From the NCBI RefSeq assembly GCF_988242995.1, contig NZ_OZ547043.1: a stretch of DNA of 64,000 nt, one strand, 5' to 3'. The position numbers and the translations under genes were made by a program. Below are positions 3,348-50,873 of this stretch, piece by piece (position 1 is the stretch's first letter; each line of letters begins with the position of its first letter). The notes beneath the pieces were generated by a model. That model was not told where the DNA came from, made no database searches, and saw only the letters and a list, made by a program, of their open reading frames with translations.

Positions 3348-3507
3348 GCTAAAATTGTGCACTCAACACAGTGATTATTTAGCGTAAAACCTGATGAAAA
3401 AACAATCTTTATGTAACGATTGTGTGATGATGTGGATACAAAAAATTTACTTAATCAGCTGGAGATAGCAGATGGATGCACTAAATAAGTGCGTTGAGGT
3501 GGGCTGC

Positions 3508-3578: not shown

Positions 3579-4226
<648 letters not shown>

Positions 4227-15283: not shown

Positions 15284-15285
15284 TC

Positions 15286-16593
15286 TCAGGCGCGTTTTGC
15301 GCGACGTTCAGCAATAAAGGTGACCAGGAAGAAAGCACCAATCAGGTCAAAGAAGCCCATGGCGATAAACAGGGGGTTAAAGCCGATTTTGTCAGCGGTA
15401 ACCCCGATAATCAGGGAGAACAGGAAACTTGCGATCCACGCGGCAGAACCGCGCATGCCGTTAACAGTGGCCATCTGACCTTTGTCGAAGGATTCCACCA
15501 CCAGTGCGCTCAGCATGCAGGAGATGATCTGGTGACCGAAGCCGCCGATGGAAATAAGGACGATGGCGATATACGGGTTATTGGTAAAGGCCATCACCGC
15601 CAGCGAAACCATCAGGAATGCGCCACTGACCGATGATGCGACAACGGAGTTCACACGACTCAGCCCAAACAGGCGGGTGTAAAGTTTGGTCAGATAGCCG
15701 CTGGCAATACTGCCAAGATCAGCGGCGAGGAACGGCAACCAGGCGAATAATGCGATCTGCTTAAGGTCCATGCCATAGGTTTTGGACAGGTATAGCGGAA
15801 CCCAGAAACTCATCACCGCCCACGCCGGTTCTGCCATAAAGGCCGGGATAGCGATACCGTAAAAGCGTTTATTTTTGCCTACGGTTTTCAGTGCGGTCAG
15901 AAAGGGTAACTTGACAGGGGGCGCTTCGTTATCCTGGCGGATAAAGTCCAGCTCGGCTTTGCTGAGGTTAGGATGCTTATCCGGGTTGTGATAGAACGCC
16001 CACCACAGCACCACCCACAGCATCGCCAGGATGCCAGTGAACATAAATGCACCCTGCCAGCCGAATGAAGCGTGGGCAAAATAGATAATCGGTGGGGCCA
16101 GCATGGCACCGATGGAAAAACCGACGCCTGCCCAGCCTGCGGCGATCGGGCGTTCTGATTTTGGAAACCATTCACCGATGGTTTTGGCGTTTGCTGGGGT
16201 TGCCGCGGCTTCCGCACCGCCCATAAAGAAGCGCAACAGCGCCAGATGTACCCAGTTTCCCGCCCCCGCATGCATCAGACAGGCCAGCGCCCACAGTCCC
16301 GCGCAGATCATAAAGCCCAGTTTGAGGCCAATGACGTCAATCAGCCATCCACACAACGGTTGGAATAGGGTATAGGCGAGCTGGAAAGCACCTACAATCC
16401 AGGAATATTGTTCGGTGGTAATCCCCAGGCTGCTTTTCAGTTCGGGGGCGAGAATACCCAGCGAGTTACGCGTGATGTAGTTGACAGTAACACCGAGCAA
16501 AAAAAGGACCAGTATCCACCAACGCAGATTTTTGACGATATGGCGCGGTTTACTGGCAGTCATATCGTTATTGATACCCTGACTCATATGCAC
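15286..16593 (-). CDS. MFS transporter, anion:cation symporter (ACS) family-like
   Basis: 435-aa 12-TM-type ORF with an ACS-like N-terminal signature (RWWILVLFLLGVTVNYITRNSLGILAPE...). Its stop lies 2 nt upstream of the GH31 ATG, indicating an operon. Confidence 0.85.
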   Translation of the reverse strand: MHMSQGINNDMTASKPRHIVKNLRWWILVLFLLGVTVNYITRNSLGILAPELKSSLGITTEQYSWIVGAFQLAYTLFQPLCGWLIDVIGLKLGFMICAGLWALACLMHAGAGNWVHLALLRFFMGGAEAAATPANAKTIGEWFPKSERPIAAGWAGVGFSIGAMLAPPIIYFAHASFGWQGAFMFTGILAMLWVVLWWAFYHNPDKHPNLSKAELDFIRQDNEAPPVKLPFLTALKTVGKNKRFYGIAIPAFMAEPAWAVMSFWVPLYLSKTYGMDLKQIALFAWLPFLAADLGSIASGYLTKLYTRLFGLSRVNSVVASSVSGAFLMVSLAVMAFTNNPYIAIVLISIGGFGHQIISCMLSALVVESFDKGQMATVNGMRGSAAWIASFLFSLIIGVTADKIGFNPLFIAMGFFDLIGAFFLVTFIAERRAKRA

Positions 16594-16881
16594 TCCACAG
16601 AATGGTATAGGGTTTGTGCGGCAACGTCAGAATGGAGTTGTCACACCACTTTTAACTTTTTGATAAATAAAGTCTTTATTGTTCGTTTTTCCATTATTTT
16701 TGTATGGAAGTTGTTCTACCAATTCACAGTAAGAGACCCTAAAAGCGAAAGAAAGCGGGTTTTGTGCACGTTTTTCCATGAGTGACTGATATACATTACT
16801 GAAATGGATTTAATGCCAGACAGAATGGGCTTTTTTGCTCATGAAAATTCTGTCATTTCCGAATTAGAGGCAGATCACAAA

Positions 16882-17985
16882 ATGGACAAGAAGCTGAAAA
16901 TCGCCGATATCGCCGCACGTACCGGGCTATCGCCGAGTACGGTTTCGCGGGTGCTGGCTGGCAAAGCGAATACCAGTGCACGCGCTCGCGAACAGGTGCT
17001 GGCCTGCGCGCGTGAGTTGGGCGTGATGGATGGCATGGCAGCAGGTCGTATGTTGCTGAACAACCTGATTATTTTCGCGCCGCAACGCGCTTTTGACCAA
17101 CGATCTGATATCTTTTATTACCGTGTGATCCAGAGCATCAGCAAAGCGTTATCGCCGCATGAAGTGCGGCTGCGTTACTGCGCGCTGGAGGAGTTTGACA
17201 GCGATCCCGCGCTATTTCTCTCGCGGATGAATGAAGCAGATACGCAGGCGGCGATCCTGCTGGGGATTGACGATCCGCACATCCATGATCTGGCCGCCGA
17301 TCTCGCTAAGCCTTGTGTGCTGATCAACTGCCGTGATGAACGAATGCGCCTCCCGGCGATTGCGCCGGACCATCGGTTAATTGGCGCGTTCGCCGCCCGC
17401 TATCTGTTTGAAATGGGTCACCGGGAGGTGATGAATGTGATGTGCCTGCGCCGCTACACTATGGAGCAGCGGTTTGCAGGGATTAAAGAATCATGGCGTC
17501 AGCATAATCTGGCCTTTCACCATGACCGTCATTTGCTGAATATCAGCAGTTTTAGCGCTAAAGAAGCGGAAGAAAAGGTCGGAGCGTGGCTGGATGCCGC
17601 CAATGGCAAGACGTTGCCGACGGCGTTTCTGGTCGGCGGGGATTTTATGGCGGCGGGAACGGTAAATGCGCTACATCGTCGTGGTCTGCGCGTACCACAG
17701 GATGTCTCGGTGATGAGTATCGACGGCTTTAACCTTGCGGCAATCGAGGATGTTCCCCTGACGGCTGTGCATGTGCCACGCGATGAGCTAGGCAATGAAG
17801 CGGTGCAAATGTTGCAACAGCGGCTGATTCGCCCGGATGCTCCGGTGGGCTCGCTGCTGCTGCACGGACGATTGGCGGTGCGGGAGTCAGTGCGGCGGGT
17901 TCGCCCAGGAAAAGGGAACACCGCCGTGGAACGGGAAGGGCTGTACGACACTCAGCTGTCGATTCCCAACGCTCGCTTACCGTGA
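16882..17985 (+). CDS. LacI-family transcriptional regulator, divergent from the MFS-GH31 operon
   Basis: N-terminal HTH KIADIAARTGLSPSTVSRVL followed by a periplasmic-binding-protein-like sugar-binding core. Start chosen at MDKKLKIADI; upstream in-frame ATGs exist, so the start is uncertain. Confidence 0.8.
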   Translation: MDKKLKIADIAARTGLSPSTVSRVLAGKANTSARAREQVLACARELGVMDGMAAGRMLLNNLIIFAPQRAFDQRSDIFYYRVIQSISKALSPHEVRLRYCALEEFDSDPALFLSRMNEADTQAAILLGIDDPHIHDLAADLAKPCVLINCRDERMRLPAIAPDHRLIGAFAARYLFEMGHREVMNVMCLRRYTMEQRFAGIKESWRQHNLAFHHDRHLLNISSFSAKEAEEKVGAWLDAANGKTLPTAFLVGGDFMAAGTVNALHRRGLRVPQDVSVMSIDGFNLAAIEDVPLTAVHVPRDELGNEAVQMLQQRLIRPDAPVGSLLLHGRLAVRESVRRVRPGKGNTAVEREGLYDTQLSIPNARLP

Positions 17986-33134: not shown

Positions 33135-35483
33135 ATGCTGAGTTTATACGAAAAGATAAAGATAAGGCTGATAATTTTATTTTTATTGGCAGCACTGTCA
33201 TTTATTGGCCTTTTTTTCATCATTAACTATCAACTGGTATCGGAACGCGCGGTAAAACGTGCCGATAGCCGCTTTGAACTTATTCAGAAAAACGTTGGCT
33301 ATTTCTTTAAAGATATTGAACGTTCGGCCCTGACATTAAAGGACTCACTGTATTTATTAAAAAATACAGAGGAGATTCAACGCGCTGTGATCCTTAAAAT
33401 GGAAATGATGCCATTTTTAGACTCGGTGGGACTGGTACTTGATGATAATAAATATTATCTCTTTTCGCGGAGGGCGAATGATAAAATCGTTGTTTATCAT
33501 CAGGAAGAAGTAAATGGACCGCTTGTCGACGAGTCAGGGCGGGTTATTTTTGCCGATTTTAATCCATCGAAACGACCATGGTCGGTGGCTTCAGATGACT
33601 CTAACAACAGCTGGAATCCGGCCTACAATTGCTTTGATCGTCCGGGTAAAAAATGTATCTCTTTTACGCTACGCATCAACGGCAAAGATCACGATTTGTT
33701 AGCGGTGGATAAAATACATGTCGATTTAAACTGGCGATATCTGAACGAGTATCTTGATCAAATCAGCGCTAATGATGAAGTTCTATTTTTGAAACAAGGC
33801 CATGAGATCATTGCCAAGAATCAACTCGCGCGTGAAAAACTGATTATTTATAATAGCGAAGGTAATTATAATATTATTGATTCTGTCGATACTGAATATA
33901 TTGAAAAAACATCAGCGGTGCCAAACAACGCATTATTCGAAATCTATTTTTATTATCCTGGCGGTAATTTATTGAACGCATCAGATAAACTTTTTTATCT
34001 GCCGTTTGCTTTCATTATTATCGTATTGCTGGTGGTTTATTTAATGACCACTCGTGTGTTCCGTCGGCAATTTTCTGAAATGACCGAGCTGGTTAATACG
34101 CTGGCGTTTTTGCCCGACTCAACGGATCAGATCGAGGCTCTGAAAATTCGCGAAGGCGATGCGAAAGAGATTATCAGCATCAAAAATTCGATCGCGGAAA
34201 TGAAAGATGCTGAAATTGAACGGGCAAATAAATTGCTCTCGCTGATCTCTTACGATCAGGAAAGCGGTTTTATTAAAAATATGGCGATTATTGAGTCCAA
34301 CAATAATCAGTATCTGGCTGTGGGGATCATCAAACTGTGTGGTCTGGAAGCTGTGGAAGCGGTGTTTGGTGTTGATGAACGCAATAAAATCGTCAGGAAA
34401 TTGTGTCAGCGAATTGCCGAGAAATATGCGCAATGCTGCGATATCGTGACATTTAATGCCGATCTCTATTTACTCCTGTGCCGGGAAAATGTACAGACGT
34501 TTACCCGTAAGATAGCGACGGTAAACGATTTTGACAGCAGTTTTGGCTACCGCAATCTGCGCATCCATAAGTCTGCTATTTGTGAACCTTTGCAGGGGGA
34601 AAACGCCTGGAGTTACGCAGAAAAGCTGAAACTGGCGATTTCCAGTATCCGCAACCATATGTTCTCAGAGTTTATTTTCTGTGATGACGCGAAACTCAAC
34701 GAAATAGAAGAGAATATCTGGATTGCGCGTAATATTCGCCATGCAATGGAAATTGGCGAACTATTCCTCGTCTATCAACCGATCGTTGATATTAACACCC
34801 GCGCCATTCTGGGCGCGGAGGCGTTGTGCCGTTGGGTGTCTGCGGAGCGGGGGATCATTTCACCGCTAAAGTTCATTACCATTGCTGAAGATATCGGGTT
34901 TATCAATGAGCTGGGTTATCAGATTATTAAAACGGCAATGGGTGAATTCAGACATTTTAGTCAGCGTGCGTCGCTGAAGGATGATTTCTTACTGCATATT
35001 AATGTTTCGCCCTGGCAGTTAAACGAACCACACTTTCATGAGCGTTTTACCACCATCATGGAAGAAAATGGCCTGAAGGCGAACAGCCTCTGTGTTGAGA
35101 TCACTGAAACCGTGATCGAGCGAATTAATGAACATTTTTATCTCAATATTGAACAACTGCGTAAACAAGGAGTACGGATATCGATTGATGACTTTGGCAC
35201 CGGTTTGTCAAACCTGAAACGTTTTTATGAAATTAATCCAGATAGCATAAAGGTGGACTCACAATTTACCGGCGATATTTTCGGTACTGCGGGAAAAATT
35301 GTGCGCATTATTTTCGATCTGGCACGCTATAACCGGATCCCGGTGATTGCGGAAGGCGTAGAGAGCGAAGACGTTGCGCGCGAATTAATCAAATTAGGAT
35401 GTGTTCAGGCTCAGGGGTATCTGTACCAGAAACCCATGCCGTTCTCCGCCTGGGATAAAAGTGGAAAATTAGTAAAAGAGTAG
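33135..35483 (+). CDS. pdeI: c-di-GMP phosphodiesterase (periplasmic sensor domain, degenerate GGDEF, EAL)
   Basis: Start [15 protein letters not shown]...; EAL-domain motifs near the C-terminus (ELF, DDFGTG); matches YliE/PdeI (782 aa). The track ORF extends 26 codons upstream. Confidence 0.85.
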
Positions 35484-35490
35484 TTTACGT

Positions 35491-36819
35491 ATGTCCAGAA
35501 TCAATAAGTTCGTACTTACAGTCAGTCTGCTGATTTTTATCATGATTTCAGCAGTTGCCTGCGGGATCTACACTCAAATGGTAAAGGAACGGGTGTATGG
35601 CCTGAAACAGTCCGTTATTGATACTGCTTTTGCGGTGGCAAATATTGCTGAATATCGGCGTAGCGTGGCAATTGATCTCATCAACACGCTAAACCCCACG
35701 GAGGAACAGCTGTTGGTTGGTTTGCGCACAGCTTACGCCGACTCGGTTTCACCCTCTTATTTGTACGATGTCGGTCCTTATCTGATTTCCAGTGACGAAT
35801 GTATTCAGGTAAAGGAGTTCGAGAAAAATTATTGTGCAGATATTATGCAGATTGTGAAGTATCGACATGTCAAAAATACAGGGTTTATCTCTTTTGACGG
35901 TAAAACCTTCGTCTATTACCTCTATCCGGTAACTCATAATCGTAGTCTGATATTTTTGCTTGGTCTGGAGCGTTTTTCTTTACTGTCAAAATCGCTGGCG
36001 ATGGATAGCGAGAACCTGATGTTCTCTCTGTTTAAGAACGGTAAACCGGTGACCGGTGATGAATATAATGCTAAAAACGCCATCTTCACCGTTTCGGAAG
36101 CGATGGAGCACTTCGCCTATTTGCCGACCGGATTGTACGTATTTGCGTATAAAAAAGATGTTTATTTGCGGGTCTGTACATTGATTATTTTCTTTGCCGC
36201 ATTGGTGGCAGTGATATCGGGTGTCAGTTGCCTCTATCTGGTACGCAGAGTGATTAATCGTGGTATTGTGGAGAAAGAAGCCATCATTAATAACCATTTT
36301 GAACGCGTACTGGATGGCGGGCTTTTCTTTTCAGCTGCCGATGTCAAAAAACTCTACAGTTTGTATAACTCGGCGTTCCTGGATGACCTGACCAAAGCAA
36401 TGGGCAGAAAATCCTTTGACGAAGATTTAAAAGCGCTGCCGGAAAAAGGCGGTTATTTGTGCCTGTTTGACGTCGATAAATTCAAAAACATCAACGACAC
36501 CTTCGGTCATTTGCTGGGCGATGAAGTGTTGATGAAAGTGGTGAAAATCCTTAAATCACAGATCCCCGTAGATAAAGGTAAAGTCTACCGCTTCGGCGGT
36601 GACGAATTTGCGGTGATTTATACGGGTGGAACGCTGGAAGAGTTGCTATCGATTCTAAAAGAAATTGTTCATTTCCAGGTGGGAAGCATTAATTTAAGCA
36701 CCAGTATCGGTGTAGCGCATTCAAATGAATGTACTACCGTTGAACGCTTGAAAATGCTGGCGGATGAGCGGCTGTATAAGAGTAAGAAAAACGGCAGGGC
36801 GCAGATTAGCTGGCAGTAG
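35491..36819 (+). CDS. dgcI: Diguanylate cyclase (GGDEF domain)
   Basis: 442-aa ORF with the active-site motif RFGGDEF; matches YliF/DgcI. Confidence 0.9.
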
Positions 36820-36833
36820 AATTAGAATAGTGT

Positions 36834-36859
36834 TAGTACCCCTTAATCAAGGGGTACTA
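36834..36859. other. Perfect 9-bp-stem inverted repeat (TAGTACCCC-ttaatcaa-GGGGTACTA) at the dgcI / TA-module junction
   Basis: Read directly from the sequence; no flanking U-run on either strand, so the terminator role is uncertain. Confidence 0.4.
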
Positions 36860-36888
36860 ATGAATGTGGTAAATCATTTGCAAACATT

Positions 36889-37218
36889 TTACTTTGCAAA
36901 AACTTCCGGCCCTTTTATTGCCAATGTATTCAAAATACGTAATGCCGGGCCGCTCGGTTTTATTTCATTACGTTCCCATTTCGAGACACTTTCTTTTGAC
37001 ATTCCCATTGTATGTGCCAGCACGGATTGTGACATGCCGTATCGGGTGCGGATGGCTTTGATCTCTTCACCCGTCATTGATTTGACTTTGGCTATACGGG
37101 CGCTGACTTCACGAGCTTTGACCATGACGGCAATGGCATCAACTTCACTATCAGACATCAGGCCCAGTGCATTCAGTTCCTTTGCATCTTCCAGCATCAT
37201 TTGTAATTTATCGCTCAT
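36889..37218 (-). CDS. Type II antitoxin, HTH-XRE family (C-terminal helix-turn-helix)
   Basis: 109-aa ORF; the C-terminal segment ...IKAIRTRYGMSQSVLAHTMGMSKESVSKWERNEIKPSGPALRILNTLAIKGPEV fits an XRE/Cro-type HTH. It overlaps the upstream toxin ORF by 11 nt. Confidence 0.7.
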   Translation of the reverse strand: MSDKLQMMLEDAKELNALGLMSDSEVDAIAVMVKAREVSARIAKVKSMTGEEIKAIRTRYGMSQSVLAHTMGMSKESVSKWERNEIKPSGPALRILNTLAIKGPEVFAK

Positions 37219-37594
37219 TTTTCACCTCAATCAAAAAGCCAGTTTCGATCAAATCCTCTATTTGCTTATTGCTAAAGGCCAGAAATGCATTTGCCATTTT
37301 TTTGTAGGCCGCCAGTTCATCATCTTCGATTTCTTTGGTTCCTTTACTGCTTAGACCACTCTTGGACCAACCATCATAAAAAAACACATGATTTGCTGAT
37401 TTAAAAAAGATAATTGTTCTGGCTCCACCACTCTTTCCTTGTTGGAGGGGTAAACGTTTTTTGATGACACCGCTACCTAAATCAGCCTCCCATATGCCCT
37501 GCATCACTTCTTCAGCGGCAGCCATGAGAACTTTATCGTGAATACCAAGTTTTTTCGTGCTTTGGCTGAATCGTCTTGCCTTATACACACCCAT
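37208..37594 (-). CDS. Type II toxin, RelE/ParE superfamily (HigB-2/Gp49-like)
   Basis: 128-aa ORF preceded by SD AGGATGG; toxin-first gene order with an HTH antitoxin downstream, as in HigBA-type modules. The family call rests on pattern resemblance (GGARTIIFF...GWSKS...KEIEDDEL), not on an alignment. Confidence 0.65.
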   Translation of the reverse strand: MGVYKARRFSQSTKKLGIHDKVLMAAAEEVMQGIWEADLGSGVIKKRLPLQQGKSGGARTIIFFKSANHVFFYDGWSKSGLSSKGTKEIEDDELAAYKKMANAFLAFSNKQIEDLIETGFLIEVKNER

Positions 37595-37609
37595 ACATCC
37601 ATCCTTGTG

Positions 37610-37635
37610 GTAATGTTTACTATAGTAACCATTAC
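37610..37635. promoter_or_regulatory. 26-bp near-perfect palindrome (GTAATG-tt-TACTATAGTA-ac-CATTAC), candidate autoregulatory operator of the TA operon
   Basis: Starts 16 bp upstream of the toxin ATG; the central TACTATAGTA is perfectly palindromic. Confidence 0.5.
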
Positions 37636-37819
37636 GCTTATTTCAAGTAATTGCGATCAAAACTTTAATTTGGTGTGAAAAAGTGAGAGTTGCCTCGAGT
37701 ACGATTCATTTTTCTCGATTTATGCGTCAGGGGATTTTGTGCGTAAGGGTAGGACATCGGGAAGGGCAGCAGAGGCAGATCGAAGAACAATATCCTTGTT
37801 AGATCTGCCTTAAGATTAA

Positions 37820-39145
37820 TTAAACCCGGCTACCCCACAAATCGTACTCATCGGCGTGCTCGACTTTCACACGCAGGATATCACCCGGCTTAACGTTGGT
37901 TTCACCATTGAGATAAACCGCGCCGTCGATTTCCGGTGCATCTGCCATGCTGCGACCAATCGCGCCTTCTTCGTCCACTTCGTCGATAATCACCAGAATT
38001 TCACGGCCCACTTTCTCTTGCAGGCGCTCGGCGGAAATCTGCTGCTGCAGCTGCATGAAACGGTTCCAGCGTTCTTCTTTCACTTCTTCCGGAACCTGGT
38101 CAGGCAGGGCATTGGCGTCTGCACCTTCAACCGGGCTGTATTTAAAGCAGCCAACGCGATCCAGACGCGCTTCTTTCAGGAAGTCGAGTAGCATCTGGAA
38201 ATCTTCTTCCGTCTCGCCAGGGAAGCCGACAATAAAGGTTGAGCGTAGGGTCAGTTCCGGGCAGATTTCGCGCCACTGTTTGATGCGCGCCAGTTGGCGA
38301 TCTACAGAACCCGGACGCTTCATCAGTTTGAGAATGCGCGGGCTGGCGTGCTGCAACGGAATGTCCAGATACGGCAGGATTTTGCCTTCTGCCATCAGTG
38401 GGATGACGTCGTCCACATGCGGATAAGGGTAAACGTAGTGCAGACGTGTCCAGATCCCCAGTTTCGATAACTGTTCGCACAGGCTGACCATGCTGGTTTT
38501 TACCGGCTCGCCGTTGTGGAAGCCAGTACGATGTTTAACATCAACGCCATAGGCGGAAGTATCCTGCGAGATCACCAGAATCTCTTTAACGCCAGCATCT
38601 ACCAGACGTTTCGCTTCACTTAACACTTCGCCAATCGGACGGCTCACCAGGTCGCCGCGCATAGACGGAATAATGCAGAAGGTGCAGCGGTGATTACAGC
38701 CTTCAGAAATTTTCAGATAGGCATAATGACGCGGCGTCAGTTTCACGCCTTGTTCTGGCACCAGGCTCAGGAATGGGTTGTGTTTCGGTTTTGGCACGTA
38801 GTGATGAACGTGCTCCAGAACCTGCTCATAGCTATGAGGCCCGGTGATTTCCAGCACTTTCGGGTGGACTTCGCGGATCTGATCTTCTTTTGCCCCCAGA
38901 CAACCGGTCACAATTACCTTGCCGTTTTCATTCAACGCTTCACCAATGGCTTCCAGTGATTCTTGTACCGCGCTGTCAATAAAGCCGCAGGTGTTGACGA
39001 TCACCATGTCCGCATCGTCATAGCTCGGTACCACGTCATAACCTTCAGTGCGTAGTTCGGTGAGAATACGCTCTGAATCAACAAGGTTTTTCGGACAGCC
39101 AAGGGAAACAAAGCCGATTTTCGGCTGGGGAGTTACTTTGCTCAT
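37820..39145 (-). CDS. rimO: Ribosomal protein S12 methylthiotransferase (radical SAM MTTase)
   Basis: 441-aa ORF with N-terminal MTTase Cys residues and the radical-SAM motif CNHRCTFC; matches RimO. Confidence 0.95.
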
Positions 39146-39357
39146 AGCTTAAAAAATATTCAGTTACAGGAAAGGTCAGGGCAGGGATTCTACAGAGTTC
39201 TGGATAAAATTTGTATCGCAATCTCATTCGCTGGCGGAGGCGAAGGAAATGTAAATTTTGTTAATTCGGCGTGAAGAATTGATCCTGGACAGCATTTTGC
39301 TCAAAAAATAGCCATACTATTTAATTGCAACAAGGCTGGAAAGAGGAGGATCGAAGT

Positions 39358-39741
39358 ATGTTCGTTGACAGACAGCGAATCGATCTGCTGAACCGGTTGA
39401 TCGACGCACGCGTTGACCTCGCCGCATACGTGCAACTGAGGAAGGCAAAAGGATACATGTCCGTCAGCGAAAGCAATCATCTACGAGATAACTTTTTTAA
39501 ACTGAATCGCGAACTGCACGATAAATCGCTGCGGTTGAATCTTCATCTGGATCAGGAAGAGTGGAGTGCTCTTCATCATGCTGAAGAAGCATTAGCGACA
39601 GCCGCAGTATGTTTGATGAGTGGGCACCATGATTGCCCGACTGTTATTACCGTCAACGCCGATAAGCTTGAAAATTGTCTGATGAGCTTAACGCTGAGTA
39701 TCCAGAGCCTGCAGAAGCACGCCATGCTTGAGAAGGCCTGA
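39358..39741 (+). CDS. bssR: Biofilm regulator BssR
   Basis: Start MFVDRQRIDLLNRLIDARVDLAAYVQ... with SD AGGAGGA; 127 aa. The track's upstream extension is rejected. Confidence 0.9.
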   Translation: MFVDRQRIDLLNRLIDARVDLAAYVQLRKAKGYMSVSESNHLRDNFFKLNRELHDKSLRLNLHLDQEEWSALHHAEEALATAAVCLMSGHHDCPTVITVNADKLENCLMSLTLSIQSLQKHAMLEKA

Positions 39742-39851
39742 AAACTAAGGGGGAGAAAGCGTCTCCCCCTTCATGTTTAAGTTTTTGTAAAAATGAATTT
39801 GTTATCTCCTCCACTGACTACGCTTTAAGCCAGAGTCAATCCGGAGGCGTT

Positions 39852-40912
39852 ATGCATCGACAATCCTTTTTCCTTGTGCCCCTTATTTGTCTTTCTTCCG
39901 CTCTCTGGGCGGCTCCTGCAACGGTAAATGTCGAAGTACTGCAGGACAAACTCGACCATCCCTGGGCGCTGGCCTTTTTACCCGACAATCACGGTATGTT
40001 AATCACTCTGCGCGGCGGCGAGTTGCGTCACTGGCAAGCAGGAAAAGGATTATCTGCGCCGCTTTCCGGAGTGCCGGAAGTTTGGGCGCACGGGCAGGGT
40101 GGCCTGCTGGATGTGGTTTTAGCGCCTGATTTTGCTCAGTCTCGCCGCATCTGGTTAAGTTATTCCGAAGTTGGCGATGATGGCAAAGCCGGAACTGCTG
40201 TGGGTTATGGCCGCTTAAGTGATGATCTCTCAAAGGTGACCGACTTCCGCACCGTCTTTCGCCAGATGCCAAAACTGTCTACCGGCAACCATTTTGGCGG
40301 GCGGCTGGTATTCGACGGTAAAGGTTATCTTTTTATTGCTCTGGGCGAAAACAATCAGCGCCCGACGGCGCAGGATCTGAATAAATTACAGGGCAAACTG
40401 GTGCGTCTGACCGACCAGGGCGAAATCCCGGATGATAATCCTTTTATAAAGGAATCCGGTGCGCGCGCCGAGATCTGGTCTTATGGCATTCGTAATCCGC
40501 AAGGAATGGCGATGAAATTAATATCCCGCAAAAAGGCAAAAACTACGGCTGGCCGCTGGCAACCTGGGGAATCAACTATTCAGGCTTTAAGATACCGGAA
40601 GCGAAAGGGGAGATCGTCGCCGGGACCGAGCAACCTGTTTTTTACTGGAAAGATTCGCCCGCCGTGAGCGGCATGGCCTTCTATAACAGCGATAAATTCC
40701 CCCAGTGGCAGCAAAAATTATTTATTGGCGCGCTGAAAGATAAAGATGTCATTGTGATGAGCGTCAACGGCGACAAAGTGACAGAAGATGGCCGTATTTT
40801 AACGGACAGAGGGCAGCGAATTCGTGATGTTCGCACTGGACCCGACGGTTATTTATACGTTCTCACCGACGAGTCCAGTGGGGAATTACTTAAAGTTAGC
40901 CCACGCAATTAG
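39852..40912 (+). pseudogene. yliI: Soluble aldose sugar dehydrogenase (PQQ-dependent beta-propeller), disrupted by a frameshift
   Basis: N-terminal 218 aa (signal peptide ... NPQGMAM) are in one frame (ORF 39852..40667), and the C-terminal portion (GDEINIPQKGKNYGWPLATWGINYSGF...KVSPRN) continues in another frame (to 40912). The first frame degenerates into low-complexity sequence after position 40514. Confidence 0.75.
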
Positions 40913-41535
40913 CTAACGGGAATCATCACCACTTTGCGCACTGCTGGGCGTTCAGTGAGTTGCTGATACCAGCGTTGCAGATTTGGACGCGGTGTCCAGG
41001 TCAGGCCAACGTTAAACAAATTGTAGATGAACGGAGCGATAGCGATATCGCCCACACCAAACTCGTCGCCAGAGAACCATTTTACTTTTGCCAGTTCCGC
41101 ATCGAGCAGGGCAAACAGGGCGTCGCACTCTTTACAACTGGCATCAATGGCGGCCTGATCGCGCTCTTCCGGTGGTGTTCTGACTAATCCCATCAGGATC
41201 CCGCGATGAGCATTACTGAGCGTCTGGTTTGCCCAGTCCATCCATTTTTCTGCTTCCGCACGACGTGCCGGTGAGTCGATCCACAGGCGTTTTTGCCCGT
41301 ACTGTGCCGCCAGATAGCGGACAATGGCGTTTGATTCCCAAAGAATGAGATCACTTTCGTCGTCACGCAACAACGGCACCAGCCCGTTAGGGTTCATCGC
41401 CAGAAAATCAGCATCGTGATTTATCCCAAACTCACGGCCCGCGAGAATTTGCTCATAAGGTAGTTCCAGTTCTTCGAGCGTCAGCAATACTTTTTTTACG
41501 TTGGTTGAATTATTCCGACCCCACAGCGTAATCAT
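40909..41535 (-). CDS. gstB: Glutathione S-transferase
   Basis: Start [28 protein letters not shown]...; 208 aa; matches GstB/YliJ. Confidence 0.9.
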
Positions 41536-41781
41536 ACTCACCCCTTTTCCGACAGGCAGCCACAGGCTGAACAGGACTCCGATGGTGAAGTAAAGTTAAC
41601 TTTTAAGCAACAGCTGGCAAAAAAATGACACCAGAAGCAGCGAAGCGGCAGGATATTGCATAAACTTTAAAAACTTTACCAACTTACGGTTTCTTTAAGT
41701 TTGTGTGTGCGTTATTAATCACCGAACTTATCATACGGCGATATAACGTATTTTTTTTGAATGGATACTCGGGTGGCATTT

Positions 41782-42984
41782 ATGACGCAATACTCCTCTC
41801 TCCTTCGTGGTCTTGCAGCGGGTTCTGCATTTTTATTCCTTTTTGCCCCAACGGCATTCGCGGCGGAACAAACCGTTGAAGCGCCGAGCGTGGATGCGCG
41901 TGCATGGATTTTAATGGATTACGCCAGCGGTAAAGTGCTGGCAGAAGGCAATGCGGATGAAAAACTGGACCCCGCGAGCCTGACTAAAATCATGACCAGC
42001 TATGTGGTTGGGCAGGCGCTTAAGGCCGATAAGATTAAACTCACCGATATGGTGACGGTCGGTAAAGATGCCTGGGCGACGGGAAATCCGGCACTGCGTG
42101 GTTCATCGGTAATGTTCCTTAAACCGGGCGATCAGGTTTCAGTGGCAGACCTGAACAAAGGTGTGATTATCCAGTCCGGTAATGACGCCTGTATTGCGCT
42201 GGCCGATTACGTTGCCGGGAGCCAGGAGTCATTTATTGATCTGATGAATGGTTATGCCAAAAAACTGGGTCTGACCAACACTACCTTCCAGACGGTGCAC
42301 GGTCTGGATGCGCCGGGGCAGTTCAGTACCGCGCGCGATATGGCATTGCTGGGTAAAGCATTAATCCACGATGTGCCGGAAGAGTACGCCATTCATAAAG
42401 AGAAAGAGTTCACCTTCAACAAAATTCGACAGCCTAACCGTAACCGTCTGCTATGGAGCAGCAATCTGAATGTTGATGGCATGAAGACAGGAACCACGGC
42501 AGGCGCGGGATATAATCTGGTTGCTTCGGCTACCCAGGGCGATATGCGTTTGATCTCCGTAGTACTGGGTGCGAAAACTGACCGTATCCGTTTTAATGAG
42601 TCTGAGAAATTATTGACCTGGGGTTTCCGCTTCTTTGAAACCGTGACGCCAATTAAACCTGATGCCACCTTTGTGACTCAGCGCGTCTGGTTTGGTGATA
42701 AGAGCGAAGTGAATCTCGGGGCAGGTGAAGCGGGCTCAGTGACCATACCGCGTGGGCAGCTGAAAAACCTGAAAGCGAGCTACACGTTAACGGAACCGCA
42801 GCTTACCGCACCGCTGAAAAAAGGTCAGGTTGTCGGGACCATTGATTTCCAGCTTAACGGTAAATCCATTGAGCAGCGTCCGCTGATCGTGATGGAAAAT
42901 GTGGAAGAGGGCGGATTCTTTGGGCGGATGTGGGATTTCGTTATGATGAAATTCCATCAGTGGTTCGGCAGCTGGTTCTCTTAA
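41782..42984 (+). CDS. dacC: D-alanyl-D-alanine carboxypeptidase (PBP6)
   Basis: Start [27 protein letters not shown]; active-site motifs SLTK, SGN and KTG are present; 400 aa. Confidence 0.9.
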
Positions 42985-42995
42985 TCTTCTGATAA

Positions 42996-43020
42996 CCGGA
43001 TGGCGCGAAACGTCATCCGG
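42996..43020. other. Inverted repeat (CCGGATG ... CATCCGG) between the convergent dacC and deoR
   Basis: 7-bp stem with an 11-nt loop, read directly; possible terminator or REP fragment. Confidence 0.35.
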
Positions 43021-43030
43021 TAATACGTCA

Positions 43031-43789
43031 TTAATACATCAACTTAATACGCTGCGTCTGCGCGTACTTCACATACTCATCTTCCGGGCAACAATCGCTC
43101 ACCACAATATCAAAGCGTTTCAGGTCACCCATGCGTGCCGGACGCACCTTGCCAAATTTACTGTGGTCGACAACCAGCACATGCTTTTGCGCCATCGACA
43201 TGGCCCAGTGTTTTACCGGCAACTCTTCAAGATTAAAACAGGTAGCGCCCTTACTGACATGCACCCCCGCCGCGGAATAAAAAGCGATATCCGGGCAAAA
43301 ATTATTCAGCGTTTGCTGAAAATCGATGGGTTTGAAAATGGCGTTACTGGCGTGAAATTCACCACCGCAAAGAAACGCGCGGCAATGGGGTTTCTCTTTC
43401 AGCGCCAGAAAGGTATTTAGCGAATAACAAACGGCGGTGAAAGGGATTTCATTATCAATCGCTTCAATAATCCACGGTGTGGTGGTGCCACAGTCAAAAA
43501 AGAGGGTCTGATCGGGTTCTACCAGCGTCGCAGCCAGTTTTGCCGCCCGACGTTTTTCTTCCACCAGGCGGGATTTTTGATCGCTTAACAGGTAATGGCT
43601 GGCGCTGCGCGGTTCCAGAACAATATAGCCGCCGAGCAAAACGACGGGCGCACTGTGGTTGTTCAGATCGCGACGAATCGTCATCTCCGAAACCCCAAGC
43701 AGGGCGGCGGCGTCTTTAAGATGTAACTTATCGCTGCGTTTTAATTCTTGCAGCAGCTGCCCGATACGCTCTTCGCGACGTGTTTCCAT
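43031..43789 (-). CDS. deoR: Deoxyribose operon repressor
   Basis: 252-aa ORF METRREERIGQLLQELKRSDKLHLKDAAALLGVSEMTIRRDLN...; matches DeoR. Confidence 0.95.
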   Translation of the reverse strand: METRREERIGQLLQELKRSDKLHLKDAAALLGVSEMTIRRDLNNHSAPVVLLGGYIVLEPRSASHYLLSDQKSRLVEEKRRAAKLAATLVEPDQTLFFDCGTTTPWIIEAIDNEIPFTAVCYSLNTFLALKEKPHCRAFLCGGEFHASNAIFKPIDFQQTLNNFCPDIAFYSAAGVHVSKGATCFNLEELPVKHWAMSMAQKHVLVVDHSKFGKVRPARMGDLKRFDIVVSDCCPEDEYVKYAQTQRIKLMY

Positions 43790-43846
43790 AATCCCTCTGA
43801 ATAGTTATTGAAGCGAGCCGCTCAATACTACACTTTTTAGCAGAGA

Positions 43847-44443
43847 TCAGTCACGCACCCAGCCTTTGCGGATCGGTAATGCAAAACAGAAACGATACCA
43901 CGATTGCAGACGTTGATAGAGTTTATGCCCCATCGCTTGCCAGATAATCTGGGCGCTAAGGCAGCCAATCATACCTGCCAGCAATCCACCGAGCATATCC
44001 AGCGGCCAGTGGACGCCAAGATAAACGCGCGACCAGGCAATGACGACGGCCAGCACCATTAAAAGTGAGCCGGACCACAGGCGATGCCAGCATAAAAATG
44101 CCAGTGCAAAGGTGAAAATCACCGTACCGTGATCGCTCGGGAATGAGTCATCCGCCGCATGATGCAGGAAGTTATAGCCGATGTTTTCGACAAAGGGTCG
44201 GTCGTGCGGAAAAAGATGCCCCATCGTCCAGGACACAAACAGGCTGACCGCCAGCGCGATAGCGATTTTTATGACCAGTTGCCGTTGTGCTGTAACCCCC
44301 CACAGCCAAAGTACCGCGGCCAGCAACGGCACCACGGTAATCAAATCTTTAGCAATAAAAATCGCCAACGAGATCATCCACGGCGCAGAGTCTGGCGTCG
44401 CGTTAATAAGAGAGAATAGAGAGAGATTCAAATTTTCCAGCAT
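43847..44443 (-). CDS. ybjG: Undecaprenyl-diphosphate phosphatase (PAP2 family)
   Basis: Start MLENLNLSLFSLINATPDSAPW...; 198 aa; PAP2 motifs PSDH/SFPSDHG present. Confidence 0.9.
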   Translation of the reverse strand: MLENLNLSLFSLINATPDSAPWMISLAIFIAKDLITVVPLLAAVLWLWGVTAQRQLVIKIAIALAVSLFVSWTMGHLFPHDRPFVENIGYNFLHHAADDSFPSDHGTVIFTFALAFLCWHRLWSGSLLMVLAVVIAWSRVYLGVHWPLDMLGGLLAGMIGCLSAQIIWQAMGHKLYQRLQSWYRFCFALPIRKGWVRD

Positions 44444-44727
44444 AACTTCCCGACGCAAAGTGATTAAAAGGGAGCCAATACAGGCAAGTCGTTGAGAATA
44501 AAGTGCAGGTTAAACTGGGTAAAGCGGCATCGTCTTATTTCCCTCAAGCGGCCTGTTTACGGTGGGTGATTGTAACGGGCATAGGTTAAATAAAACTTAA
44601 AGAAAGCGTAGCTATACTCGCGATAATGTAAGAATGTGCTTAACCGTGGTTTCAGCTACAAAATTCGCTTTCTCGTTAGCTGCGCTTTTATTAAACTTTG
44701 CGCGATTATTATTGGCGAAGAAATTGC

Positions 44728-45960
44728 ATGCAAAATAAATTAGCTTCCGGTGCCAGGCTTGGACGTCAGGCGTTACTTTTCCCTCTCTGTCTGGTGCTTT
44801 ACGAATTTTCAACCTATATCGGCAACGATATGATTCAACCCGGTATGTTGGCCGTGGTGGAACAATATCAGGCGGGCATTGATTGGGTTCCTACTTCGAT
44901 GACTGCGTATCTGGCGGGCGGGATGTTTTTACAATGGCTCCTGGGGCCGCTGTCGGATCGTATTGGCCGCCGTCCGGTGATGCTGGCGGGAGTGGTGTGG
45001 TTTATCGTCACCTGTCTGGCAATATTACTGGCGCAAAACATTGAACAATTCACCCTGTTGCGCTTCTTGCAGGGCATAAGCCTCTGTTTCATTGGCGCTG
45101 TGGGATACGCCGCAATTCAGGAATCCTTCGAAGAGGCGGTTTGTATCAAGATCACCGCGCTAATGGCGAACGTGGCGCTGATTGCTCCGCTACTTGGTCC
45201 GCTGGTGGGCGCGGCGTGGATCCATGTGCTGCCCTGGGAAGGGATGTTTGTCTTGTTTGCTGCATTGGCAGCGATCTCCTTTTTCGGTCTGCAACGAGCT
45301 ATGCCTGAAACCGCCACGCGTATAGGCGAGAAACTGTCGCTGAAAGAACTCGGTCGTGACTATAAGCTGGTGCTGAAGAACGGCCGCTTTGTGGCGGGGG
45401 CGCTGGCGCTGGGATTCGTTAGCCTGCCGTTGTTGGCGTGGATCGCCCAGTCGCCGATTATCATTATTACCGGTGAGCAGTTGAGCAGCTATGAATATGG
45501 TTTGCTGCAAGTGCCTATTTTCGGGGCGTTAATTGCGGGTAACTTGCTGTTAGCGCGTCTGACCTCGCGCCGCACCGTACGTTCGCTGATTATTATGGGC
45601 GGATGGCCGATTATGATTGGTCTGTTGGTCGCTGCTGCGGCAACGGTTATCTCATCGCACGCGTATTTATGGATGACCGTCGGGTTAAGTATTTATGCTT
45701 TCGGCATTGGTCTGGCGAATGCGGGACTGGTGCGATTAACTCTGTTTGCCAGCGATATGAGTAAAGGTACGGTTTCTGCGGCGATGGGAATGCTGCAAAT
45801 GCTGATCTTTACCGTCGGTATTGAAATCAGCAAACATGCCTGGCTGAACGGGGGCAACGGACTGTTTAATCTCTTCAACCTTGTCAACGGAATTTTGTGG
45901 CTGTTGCTGATGGTTATCTTTTTAAAAGATAAACAGATGGGAAATTCGCACGAAGGATAA
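44728..45960 (+). CDS. mdfA: Multidrug efflux MFS transporter
   Basis: Start [40 protein letters not shown]...; 410 aa; matches MdfA/Cmr. Confidence 0.9.
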
Positions 45961-45964
45961 AAAA

Positions 45965-45993
45965 ATGCCTGATTGCTTTGTGCGATCAGGCAT
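45965..45993. terminator. Hairpin between the convergent mdfA and ybjH (GCCTGAT ... ATCAGGC)
   Basis: 7-bp stem with a 5-A run on the plus-strand 5' side, giving a U-run for the minus-strand transcript. Confidence 0.5.
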
Positions 45994-46000
45994 TCTCAAA

Positions 46001-46285
46001 TTAATGGTGATGGTCGTCAATCTGGTGTTCGATAACCATCCCTTCACCTACGCTGGCAAGATGGCGAACATAAGGATGCGGGCGGTAAGCCGGAGCTGGC
46101 GCGGGAGCCACATAGACGGTTTGCGGCACAGTCGCGACGCTGACCGCTTGTGGAACGCTGACTGAATCAGGAACCACAACCACTTTGTATCCACTCGGCA
46201 CATCGACGGTGACACTTTGCGCCATCGCCACACCAGTAAAGCCCATTAAAAGCGCGCCCAACAGTAGACAATTTTTCATAATCAT
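46001..46285 (-). CDS. ybjH: Small periplasmic protein (DUF1471-like), signal peptide
   Basis: 94-aa ORF MIMKNCLLLGALLMGFTGVAMA...; matches YbjH. Confidence 0.85.
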   Translation of the reverse strand: MIMKNCLLLGALLMGFTGVAMAQSVTVDVPSGYKVVVVPDSVSVPQAVSVATVPQTVYVAPAPAPAYRPHPYVRHLASVGEGMVIEHQIDDHHH

Positions 46286-46369
46286 TTCGCCTGAAATAAT
46301 GCAGCGGGTTAATTTGCGCGAATTATGCAGCCTTCATTCAGGTATTGTGTTGCCGGGCGTGCTGCCGTT

Positions 46370-47185
46370 TTATTGGTTAAATGGCGCTTCGTGTTTAAGC
46401 ACTTTATCGATCACATCCAGTACGCCTTCACGGTTATTGGAGCCTGCCCGGTATTTTGCCGCTGCGACGACCGCGCTGCCGGCATTTTCCATTGCAAAAC
46501 TAAAGCCTGCCTGACGCAGCATCTCAATATCGTTACCGCCATCGCCAAAGACCACCACTTCGCTGTCGTCTATTCCCCATAATTTCTGCAGTTGGCGAAG
46601 GCCATTGGCTTTATGTACGCCGGGGATAATCAGATCGATACTGCCGTTGCCGGTGTGGACCGGCACCATAATATCGCCGATGGCCTCATGTAATGCTTTT
46701 TGTACTTGTGGAATCAGTTCATCGGAAAGATTCAGACCAAACTTAAAGAAGATATCTTCTAAGTTGTCAAAGTTATCGACGTATTCCAGACGGTGATAAT
46801 ACATTTCCGCCACCGTTTTCATGGCATCGTCATATTTTTTGAGGGTATAGGCGCTATTTTTTCCGCAGGCAATAATTTCCACTTCCGGGCGCGTCAGCAA
46901 ATGTTCCACGACAGTAGCAAACGCATCCTTCGACAGCTCGCCATTAAAAACATCTTTGCCTTCGCTCACTACCCAGCCGCCGTTTTCAGCCACAAAGGCT
47001 ATTTCATTAGCAATTTCCGGAAAGAAAGAGATCAACTGATAATATTGATTCCCGCTGGCGACCACAAAGCGAATGCCTTGTGCTTTCATTTGCTGATACT
47101 GAGCCATAAACCGCTCACGGTTATAGGTTTTTTGATCGCTTAAGAAAGTACCATCCATGTCTACCGCAATTAATTTAATGCTCAT
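46370..47185 (-). CDS. ybjI: HAD-superfamily phosphatase (5-amino-6-(5-phospho-D-ribitylamino)uracil phosphatase)
   Basis: Start [15 protein letters not shown]; 271 aa; paralogue of ybiV. Confidence 0.9.
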   Translation of the reverse strand: MSIKLIAVDMDGTFLSDQKTYNRERFMAQYQQMKAQGIRFVVASGNQYYQLISFFPEIANEIAFVAENGGWVVSEGKDVFNGELSKDAFATVVEHLLTRPEVEIIACGKNSAYTLKKYDDAMKTVAEMYYHRLEYVDNFDNLEDIFFKFGLNLSDELIPQVQKALHEAIGDIMVPVHTGNGSIDLIIPGVHKANGLRQLQKLWGIDDSEVVVFGDGGNDIEMLRQAGFSFAMENAGSAVVAAAKYRAGSNNREGVLDVIDKVLKHEAPFNQ

Positions 47186-48393
47186 CAACTATTCTCCATC
47201 GCCGTCTGCGTTTTGGTATCGGGTTTGGCGACGGCTTTCGCGACAATAGCCGCGAGAATAACCAGCGCCAGTACAACCAGCATTGCACTACGTAATCCAT
47301 AATGTTCGCCGAGATAGCCCAGCAGTGGCGGCCCGACGAGGAAAGCCAGATAACCGGTCGTTGCTACCACACTGACGCGGGTTGGTGCATCGGGGCCGGT
47401 ATCGCTGGCGGCAGAAATGGTCAGCGGGAAGCCCAGCGAGGCACCCAGTCCCCAAAGTACAACAGACACCCCAGCGACCCAGGCGCTATCGACAAAAATA
47501 ATCAGCCCAATACCCAACGCTCCCATTAGTGCACTGGCCCGAACCACGGCAACGCGACTGTAACGGTCGATGAACCAACCGCCGGTAAAGCGTCCAACAG
47601 TCATCCCCAGGGTAAAACCGGCATAAATCAGCGAGCCGGAAGTAGGGCTAAAACCGTGACCGTCAACCATTAATAAGGGTAACCAGTCGTTGGCAGAACC
47701 TTCGGCAAAGGCCATCGCCAGCACCACAACACCAATCAGCAGCAACTGGATATCGCGATAAAAAGGTACGCCTTTTTCACCATGCTGGGTGCCATCGGCA
47801 GCATTTTTGCCCGTACCGTCAGGGATTGCCTGAATGGCGATATAAATAGGCGCGATGCCTACCAGCGCCGCCAATAAAATGTGCACCGTTGCCGGAACGC
47901 CAAAGGCCGTCAGTGCCATCCCGACACCAGCGCCTGCCAGCGTGCCCAGGCTATAAAAACCGTGCATCATCGGCAAAACCGTCTTATTCATTTCTCGCTC
48001 AACGGCAGCACCTTCAACGTTTATCGCCACTTCCGCAGAACCAAAACTTGCCCCAAAGACGCCGAGGCCAACCGCGAAGAGCAGGGGCGATGTCAGCCAG
48101 AGTGCCAGACTTAGTATCATCATCCCGATCAATGCGCAGGACATCGTGACCAGGATGACATTACGCGTCCCAAAGCGTTTCACTAACCACGCCGAGCAGA
48201 GAATACCGCTCATTGAACCGATCGACAGACCAAAGAGGACTCCGCCCATTTCAGCGATCGAAACAGAAAGAATATCGCGGATAGCAGGCGTACGGGTTGC
48301 CCAGGACGCCATTAACAGGCCCGGCAAAAAGAAGAACATAAACAGCGCCCAGGTTCGGCGTTTCAATGCATTACGTGAAGAATTTACGGTCAT
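47185..48393 (-). CDS. ybjJ: MFS transporter
   Basis: 402-aa polytopic ORF; matches YbjJ. Confidence 0.9.
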
Positions 48394-48476
48394 AGATCAC
48401 GTCAAAATAAGAAGAGGGAAGACAACATTAGCAAGGTTGTGTACATTTGTACACAATTGCAGAGAGAGGAAATGAC

Positions 48477-49013
48477 ATGCGTCGCGCTAACGATCCGCAA
48501 CGGCGAGAAAAAATTATCCAGGCCACGCTGGAGGCGGTGAAACTTTACGGAATACATGCTGTTACGCACCGCAAAATTGCTACCCTTGCCGGGGTACCGT
48601 TGGGGTCGATGACCTACTATTTTTCAGGAATTGATGAGTTGTTGCTGGAGGCGTTCAGCAGTTTTACTGAGATCATGTCCCGGCAATATCAGGCATTTTT
48701 TAGCGATGTTAGTGATGCTCAAGGCGCATGCCAGGCTATCACCGATATGATCTACAGCTCACAGGTTGCAACGCCGGATAACATGGAGCTGATGTACCAG
48801 CTCTACGCGCTGGCTAGCCGAAAACCGCTATTAAAAACGGTAATGCAAAACTGGATGCAGCGCAGTCAGCAAACGCTCGAACAATGGTTTGAACCCGGAA
48901 CCGCCCGCGCGCTTGATGCGTTTATTGAGGGGATGACGCTGCATTTTGTCACCGACCGTAAGCCGCTATCGCGCGAGGAGATTTTGAGGATGGTTGAGAG
49001 GGTTGCAGGGTAG
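48477..49013 (+). CDS. rcdA: TetR-family transcriptional regulator
   Basis: Start [49 protein letters not shown] (TetR HTH); 178 aa. Confidence 0.9.
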
Positions 49014-49032
49014 TAGATAAATTATAGGCAAC

Positions 49033-49111
49033 AAAAAACCCACCAACCTTGAACCGAAATGGCGGGGTTGATGGGCTCCACAAAATGGGGACATCAAAGA
49101 AAAGCAGTGGC
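49033..49111 (-). ncRNA. rybB: RybB small RNA (sigma-E-dependent, represses OMP mRNAs)
   Basis: Minus strand reads GCCACTGCTTTTCTTTGATGTCCCCATTTTGTGGAGCCCATCAACCCCGCCATTTCGGTTCAAGGTTGGTGGGTTTTTT, which is the RybB sequence as I recall it, ending in a terminator hairpin plus U-tract. Confidence 0.9.
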
Positions 49112-49146
49112 ACTAATTAAGACTGATGCCCTGCGGAAAAGTTCTG
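49112..49146 (-). promoter_or_regulatory. Sigma-E-type promoter of rybB (-35 GAACTT, -10 TCTTAA-like)
   Basis: Minus strand upstream of the RybB 5' end reads GCAGAACTTTTCCGCAGGGCATCAGTCTTAATTAGT. Confidence 0.6.
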
Positions 49147-49187
49147 CGGTTGTGCAAAAAAATTTCATTTTCAGGGCAACTTCAGTT

Positions 49188-50873
49188 TTATCCTAATCCT
49201 GGCCATACCATGACGATGATTGTCCCTGCCAGCGTCAGCAGGACGTTGGCGATTGCGTAAGTGCCCGCATAGCCCAGCGCCGGGATATTACTGCGAGCTG
49301 TATCACTGATGATCTCCATTGCCGGCGCGCAGGTGCGTGCGCCCATCATTGCGCCGAACAACAGTGCGCGGTTCATTCGCAATACATAAGCACCGAACAA
49401 GAAGCAGATAACCACTGGCACCAGACTGACAATCAATCCGGCAATCAACATCTGACCGCCAATCGCGCCCAGGCCGTTATTAATACCGCTACCAGCGCTC
49501 AGACCAACGCCTGCCATAAACACCATCAAGCCGAACTCCTTCACCATGCTTAATGCGCCCTGCGGAATGTAACCGAAGGTCGGGTGGTTAGCACGCATAA
49601 AGCCCAGCATAATTCCGGCGAATAACAACCCGGCAGCGTTTCCCATGCCGAAACTGAATGTGCTGAACTGGAAGGTGATCATCCCGATCATCAGCCCAAT
49701 AACAAAGAAGGCGCAGAATGCCAGCAAGTCAGTGACCTGGCTGTGAATCGAGATAAAGCCGATGCGATCGGCGATGGTTTTTACGCGACGGGCATCGCCG
49801 CTGACTTGTAAAACGTCACCTTTGTTAAGCACGACGTTGTCATCAATCGGCATCTCAATCTGGCTACGAATGACGCGGTTAAGGAAGCAACCGTGATCGG
49901 TCAACTTCAGTTGTGCCAGGCGTTTGCCAACAGCGTTATGGTTTTTAACGACCACTTCTTCAGTGACGATACGCATGTCGAGAAGGTCACGATCGAAAAC
50001 TTCTTTGCCATTACGGAAGCTGGGATCGAGTCGGGCGTGGGCGTCGGGGTAGCCTACCAACGCTATTTCATCGCCCATTTGTAGCACGGCATCACCGTCT
50101 GGATTTGCCAGAATCCCGTTACGCCGAATACGTTCAATGTAGCAGCCGGTTTGTCGATAAATACCCAGTTCACGCAGATTTTTGCCGTCGGTCCAGGCTA
50201 CCAGCTCCGGGCCGACGCGGTAGGCGCGGATCACCGGCAAATAAACCTTACGGTTGGCATCTGTGTCCAGGCCACGTTCGCGGGCGATTTGCTGGGCGCT
50301 GGTCTGTAAGTCCTGATGCTGCAATTTCGGCAAGTAACGCGCACCAACAATCAAACTCACCAGACCGATTAAATAGGTTAAGGCATACCCGAGGCTCAGA
50401 TTATCCAGTGCCAGTGAGAGCTGCCTGCTTTCCATGCCGGAATGACGCAGTGTATCGCCAGCACCGACCAAAACCGGTGTTGACGTCATAGAGCCTGCTA
50501 ACATACCGGCCGTCAGGCCAATATCCCAGCCAAACAGCTTACCTAACCCTAAGGCGATCACCAGCGCACTGCCAACCATCACCAGTGCTAACATTAGGTA
50601 ATTTTTCCCATCGCGAAAAAAAATGGAAAAAAAGTTCGGTCCGGCTTCGACCCCGACGCAGAAAATAAACAGCATAAAGCCAAGATTAAGCGCGTCGGTG
50701 TTAATGCTGAAATGTTGTTGGCCTAATAACAGCGATACGACTAAAACGCCAATGGAATTACCCAGTTGGATCGAACCAAGTCGTAATTTCCCGAGACATA
50801 GCCCAAGCGCGAGGACCACAAATAATAACAGAATGTAATTCCCATTTAACAATTCGGCGACGTTTATATTCAC
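49188..50873 (-). CDS. ybjL: Putative transporter with two TrkA-C (RCK C-terminal) domains
   Basis: 561-aa membrane ORF; matches YbjL. Confidence 0.9.

Follow-up and report, generated by a model that had tools for sequence, protein, structure and literature searches.

A natural 55-bp deletion between short direct repeats in the Escherichia coli yliI gene

The yliI gene in a 64,000-nucleotide stretch of E. coli DNA (contig NZ_OZ547043.1, hereafter the window) has lost 55 bp and is read in two frames. It has very probably become a pseudogene through a recent, lineage-private deletion, for which replication slippage between two copies of a 10-bp direct repeat is the most likely cause.

The yliI locus and the anatomy of the lesion

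The affected gene, at positions 39852–40912 on the forward strand, is yliI, a non-essential gene that encodes a PQQ-dependent, soluble aldose sugar dehydrogenase of the periplasm. The product of an intact allele matches the E. coli YliI structure (PDB ID: 2G8S) with an E value of 4e-243, and both fragments in the window match the Pfam GSDH family (PF07995), in agreement with homology-based membership of the YliI/Asd family. Annotated intact loci mapped onto the window retain the order bssR-yliI-gstB, with gstB convergent; the window copy thus shares its locus and gene order with intact E. coli YliI. Unlike the intact gene, it is missing gene nucleotides 656–710, is frameshifted and encodes native residues 1–221 only. 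In a tblastn comparison with the 371-aa YliI of strain NY1601, the two fragments are 99.3–99.5% identical to that protein and are read in two different frames: residues 1–222 map to 39852–40517, and residues 236–371 map to 40502–40909. The features of the locus are as follows.

39852..40912, + strand: yliI pseudogene, bounded by its start codon and its original stop codon (1,061 bp, compared with 1,116 bp in the intact gene)
39852..40667, + strand: frame expected to be translated, from the list of open reading frames (221 native codons, 50 out-of-frame codons, stop at 40665–40667)
40493..40495, + strand: TAA stop shortly before the junction, in the C-terminal frame, read from the sequence
40496..40912, + strand: orphaned C-terminal frame, from translation (open throughout, and lacking a start codon at its 5' end)
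40507..40516, + strand: deletion junction, the sole surviving copy of TGGCGATGAA, from pairwise alignment and a repeat finder run on the intact gene
40529..40535, + strand: C AAA AAG, putative −1 slip site in the zero frame of the truncated reading frame, read from the sequence
40912..41535, − strand: gstB, from tblastn (208 of 208 residues, 100% identical, intact)

The native part of the translated frame runs from a signal-peptide-like start through ...IRNPQGMAM, and its last codon, the ATG of Met221, ends at 40514. Past the GMAM sequence the product continues as KLISRKKAKTTAGRWQ...*, that is, with the nonsense tail KLISRKKAKTTAGRWQPGESTIQALRYRKRKGRSSPGPSNLFFTGKIRPP followed by the stop codon. 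The remainder of the gene is found in the C-terminal frame, which translates as SARNGDEINIPQKGKNYGWPLATWGINYSGF...LLKVSPRN* and which, from the G at 40508 onward (GDEINIPQKGKNYGWP...SPRN*), corresponds to native YliI residues 238–371. Because of the TAA at 40493–40495, this frame cannot be read into from upstream. The initial annotation is borne out on these points: it had named the gene yliI, called it frameshifted, ended the N-terminal part at about 40514 after ...IRNPQGMAM, and placed the conserved C-terminal sequence in another frame with a stop at 40493–40495.

In two Logan assemblies, the 271-aa product of the translated frame is called as a gene and matches PF07995. In the Logan annotation, the tail of yliI, from an ATG at 40673 to 40912 (+ strand), is also called as a separate 79-aa GSDH-domain gene. 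This second call is a pseudogene remnant that lacks a signal peptide and is not a gene. The 3' end of yliI overlaps that of gstB, which converges on it; since gstB is convergent and intact, the lesion is not expected to be polar.

To define the lesion at the nucleotide level, yliI from the window was aligned with the intact allele of CFIAFB20140388. The alignment contains one gap of exactly 55 columns, and the two sequences are otherwise identical over 221 bases. The intact allele has the order ...CAAGGAA-TGGCGATGAA-TCCGTGGAGTAATGCACTATGGCTGAATGAACATGGCCCGCGCGG-TGGCGATGAA-ATTAAT..., in which the 10-bp direct repeat TGGCGATGAA is present twice with starts 55 bp apart. The repeat finder places the two copies at nucleotides 656–665 and 711–720 of the intact gene; in the CFIAFB20140388 locus sequence they are at 3708–3717 and 3763–3772. 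One repeat copy and the 45-bp spacer have been lost, which corresponds to gene nucleotides 656–710 or, equivalently, 666–720. In the protein, where the intact sequence reads ...GMAM-NPWSNALWLNEHGPRGGD-EINIPQKG..., the deletion removes N222–D239 (NPWSNALWLNEHGPRGGD, 18 residues) plus one base, and, as 55 is not divisible by 3, the frame shifts after residue 221.

The nucleotide alignment that had been proposed as a check on the frameshift thus returns a 55-bp gap and no intact single frame in the window. The deletion length and the 18 missing residues, both proposed in the initial annotation, are exact: the residues are NPWSNALWLNEHGPRGGD in the intact protein, and the genome matches listed below are 55 bp longer than the query. 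The proposal of short direct repeats with one copy remaining also holds, with a correction to their length, which is 10 bp (TGGCGATGAA) and not 9 bp (GGCGATGAA).

Distribution of the junction and evidence that the lesion is real

A megablast search with window positions 39800–40950 matched 5,424 of 5,426 complete E. coli genomes. All 30 matches listed come in two pieces that span 1,206 bases, compared with 1,151 in the query, and across two megablast searches all 60 matches listed are 55 bp longer than the query. The queries used in these searches (1,151 and 91 bases) are blind to a shared deletion, as the flanking pieces become joined. The junction itself was queried as the 44-mer TCGTAATCCGCAAGGAATGGCGATGAAATTAATATCCCGCAAAA (17 + 10 + 17 bases), the halves of which fall below the 28-base megablast word on the intact allele. 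The 5,426 complete E. coli genomes gave no match to this query, and the absence carries weight because a control of the same length, taken from 70 bp upstream of the junction, matched 5,206 genomes. The exact junction likewise had no match in a metagenome contig collection or in 100,044 species-representative genomes, and the 271-aa truncated product had no exact counterpart in a protein cluster collection.

In distant homologues of known structure, the alignment continues through the deleted segment. Among these proteins is the soluble glucose dehydrogenase (sGDH) of Acinetobacter calcoaceticus (PDB IDs: 1C9U and 5MIN), which belongs to the same six-blade propeller family as YliI and shares with it the pattern GHRNPQG...E-Q/H-G-P...DEIN...GNYGWP, which spans the deleted region. 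As a distant homologue (E = 7e-23 over residues 25–264), sGDH was used only to assess conservation of this segment. With 5,424 of 5,426 genomes matched, the junction in none of them and homologues that span the segment, the long form of the gene is ancestral, and the window has therefore lost the 55 bp; other strains did not gain them.

The absence of the junction from complete E. coli genomes, metagenome contigs and species-representative genomes is also what would be expected if yliI were intact in the living strain and the lesion were an artefact of sequencing, assembly or cloning, and singleton frameshifts are occasionally errors. Against this very unlikely explanation, two other read sets give the same junction. 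Exact-sequence look-up showed that Logan contigs from runs ERR15423959 (15,016 bp) and ERR15422818 (6,040 bp) both contain the 271-aa truncated product. The former corresponds to window positions 34811–49826 and the latter to 35103–41142, and each is 100% identical to the window over its full length, junction included. The lesion is therefore present in three assemblies, and a sequencing artefact, a possibility for which the initial annotation had advised a check of this junction, is unlikely. In a k-mer assembly graph, moreover, a 10-bp repeat is too short to cause collapse.

Comparison with the nearest complete genome provides further evidence on this point. This genome is that of NY1601, from chicken faeces in China, in which yliI is intact. 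From about 24,000 to 51,000 (~27 kb), the window differs from NY1601 by three SNPs and the deletion and by nothing else, which marks the deletion as recent. All three SNPs (43550, 43613 and 44273) are also present in the longer Logan contig, ERR15423959. The absence of any other indel from this near-identical block, together with the intergenic position of the five found elsewhere, argues against an artefact. Apart from yliI, the 59 NY1601 CDSs that lie fully inside the window all map at full length with no internal stop (tblastn).

The five small indels relative to NY1601 are of 1–2 bp, at window positions 3500, 4308, 6181, 7979 and 61581, and three of them are in T or A homopolymers. By coordinate arithmetic they fall in the intergenic regions dps-glnH, rhtA-dps, opgE-ompX, mntS-opgE and artM-artJ, all in the more divergent flanks outside the near-identical block. 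General genome decay or an indel-prone assembly was considered and is ruled out by the full-length CDSs and the intergenic location of these indels. The density of SNPs relative to NY1601 shifts sharply at about 23,250 and about 51,300: between these positions there are only 3 SNPs, whereas outside them there are roughly 2–33 per kb. This pattern resembles the edges of a recombination tract, or those of a clonal segment shared within a background that is otherwise 1% divergent.

Two other gene clusters in the window were noted. Between dgcI (35491–36816) and rimO (37823–39145), positions 36892–37594 (− strand) hold a two-gene toxin-antitoxin-like module: a 128-aa RelE/ParE-family toxin (Pfam PF06296) is overlapped by, and followed by, a 109-aa HTH_3 protein. 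The window, NY1601 and both Logan contigs all carry the module; CFIAFB20140388 lacks it and has a dgcI-rimO gap of 46 bp. In NCBIfam, the 109-aa HTH protein reaches only sub-threshold scores (MqsA family, 47 bits; cut-off, 61.8), and the 128-aa toxin has no match. Between ybiU and ybiT, positions 12911–17982 encode a LacI-family regulator, an MFS transporter and a glycoside hydrolase family 31 protein, which are also found in NY1601. We take K-12 to lack this cluster at the ybiU-ybiT position, and the cluster is probably an accessory sugar-utilisation island.

Replication slippage as the probable mechanism

The sequence change has the form left by slippage-type deletions. Two copies of the repeat are present ancestrally and one is present in the derived allele, the long form is the ancestral one according to the genome matches, the absence of the junction elsewhere and the distant homologues, and the number of bases lost is the distance between the starts of the two repeats (55-bp spacing, 55-column gap, matches longer by 55 bp). 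The TGGCGATGAA pair is the only direct repeat of at least 9 bp within 200 bp in the whole 1,116-bp intact gene. Furthermore, of the 180,276 possible deletions of 20–200 bp within yliI, only one has at least 10 bp of flanking identity, and it is the one observed. The coincidence of endpoints and repeat is far beyond chance, and the rarity of deletions with such microhomology indicates that the endpoints were set by the repeat.

Slippage between short direct repeats is a classical RecA-independent route to deletion. For yliI, the ancestor would have had two copies of TGGCGATGAA, the second starting 55 bp after the first. During replication, a nascent strand ending in the first copy could have re-paired with the second copy on the template, with the loss of one copy and the 45-bp spacer. 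Translation would then run out of frame after residue 221 and stop 50 codons later. This assignment draws on general knowledge of short-repeat deletions in E. coli, and slippage is the mechanism that we infer. In sequence, slippage and other microhomology-dependent routes would be expected to leave the same footprint.

The main alternative of this kind is a real deletion that arose when a double-strand break was repaired through microhomology at the 10-bp repeat, by alternative end-joining or single-strand annealing. Such repair would likewise retain one repeat copy and remove the spacer, and the interval has no hairpin that would favour slippage. This route is nevertheless unlikely: in E. coli, deletions between short repeats that lie close together arise predominantly by RecA-independent slippage, and alternative end-joining is rare. 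A hairpin-assisted form of slippage was examined separately and rejected. The 81-nt segment of the intact allele folds as DNA at −5.5 kcal/mol, compared with a mean of −8.2 kcal/mol for shuffled sequences (z = +1.28), and so it folds no better than they do. As no hairpin joins the repeats, the usual structural facilitator of slippage is absent.

Deletion hot spots between short direct repeats in E. coli were reportedly described in lacI by Farabaugh, Albertini and co-workers. The yliI lesion resembles deletions of the lacI type in that two close short repeats are present ancestrally and one is left, with a deleted length of 10 + 45 = 55 bp. It differs from the selected laboratory mutations of lacI in being a lesion of a natural isolate, and from the lacI hot spots in having no palindrome or hairpin in the interval between the repeats. 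Nor is the yliI site a hot spot, as the lesion occurs in 0 of 5,426 complete genomes.

Consequences for YliI and for the lineage

The structure of YliI (PDB ID: 2G8S) is that of a six-blade propeller quinoprotein (PMC6881789). The truncated product retains 221 of 371 native residues, followed by the 50-residue nonsense tail. As predicted from its sequence, it would comprise the signal peptide plus about the N-terminal half of the six-bladed β-propeller. The deleted segment NPWSNALWLNEHGPRGGD contains the conserved E-H/Q-G-P...D-E element expected of YliI/Asd proteins; the EHGP..DE motif is also found in the structures 7CDY, 3A9G and 2ISM and in Acinetobacter sGDH (5MIN/1C9U). The uninterrupted frame of ~371 codons needed for six blades is broken at 40514/40515. 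The locus is therefore a pseudogene of the YliI/Asd family and not a functional member. The loss of the E-H-G-P...D-E segment and of the rest of the propeller strongly suggests that the truncated protein is inactive as a dehydrogenase. By analogy with sGDH, the HGP...E segment presumably contributes to Ca/PQQ binding.

One way in which activity might be retained is a −1 ribosome slip at C AAA AAG, which would yield a 353-aa YliI, functional or partly functional, that lacks 18 internal residues and carries 7 substitutions. The direction of such a shift is right, as it leads into the C-terminal frame, and the site sits between the stops at 40493–40495 and 40665–40667. In E. coli, the re-pairing of AAG to AAA in the A site is known to be prone to shifting. 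However, C AAA AAG falls short of a full X XXY YYZ heptamer because re-pairing in the P site would be from AAA to CAA, and no stimulatory element was identified. The arrangement stems from a recent deletion and is found in 0 of 5,426 complete E. coli genomes; the canonical heptamer and conserved split frames of programmed −1 frameshifting are not seen here. The product would, in addition, still be without the conserved EHGP..D motif and one propeller strand. Rescue by such a slip is accordingly extremely improbable.

The window and the two Logan runs could share one study or even one isolate, and a mutation that arose in laboratory culture could then be the origin of the lesion. At the other extreme, the clone might circulate in several independent samples, with loss of yliI selected or with the gene partly expressed through −1 slippage as a 353-aa periplasmic variant; this is regarded as highly improbable.

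E. coli has two PQQ-dependent dehydrogenases, of which YliI is one; its sugar specificity is broad, and it is described as 'typically of low abundance' (PMC13088180). E. coli depends on external PQQ, which is imported via PqqU (bioRxiv 10.1101/2022.06.07.495086). Because E. coli makes no PQQ and YliI is of low abundance, loss of yliI is probably nearly neutral.

The yliI lesion is an ordinary strain-specific pseudogene produced by a textbook mutational mechanism, and it illustrates very cleanly, in nature, a deletion at the one pair of 10-bp direct repeats available in a gene. The locus is correctly annotated as one yliI pseudogene in place of two GSDH-domain genes of 271 and 79 aa. Its 44-base junction is a specific lineage marker, present in two public read sets, and could be used to trace the clone.
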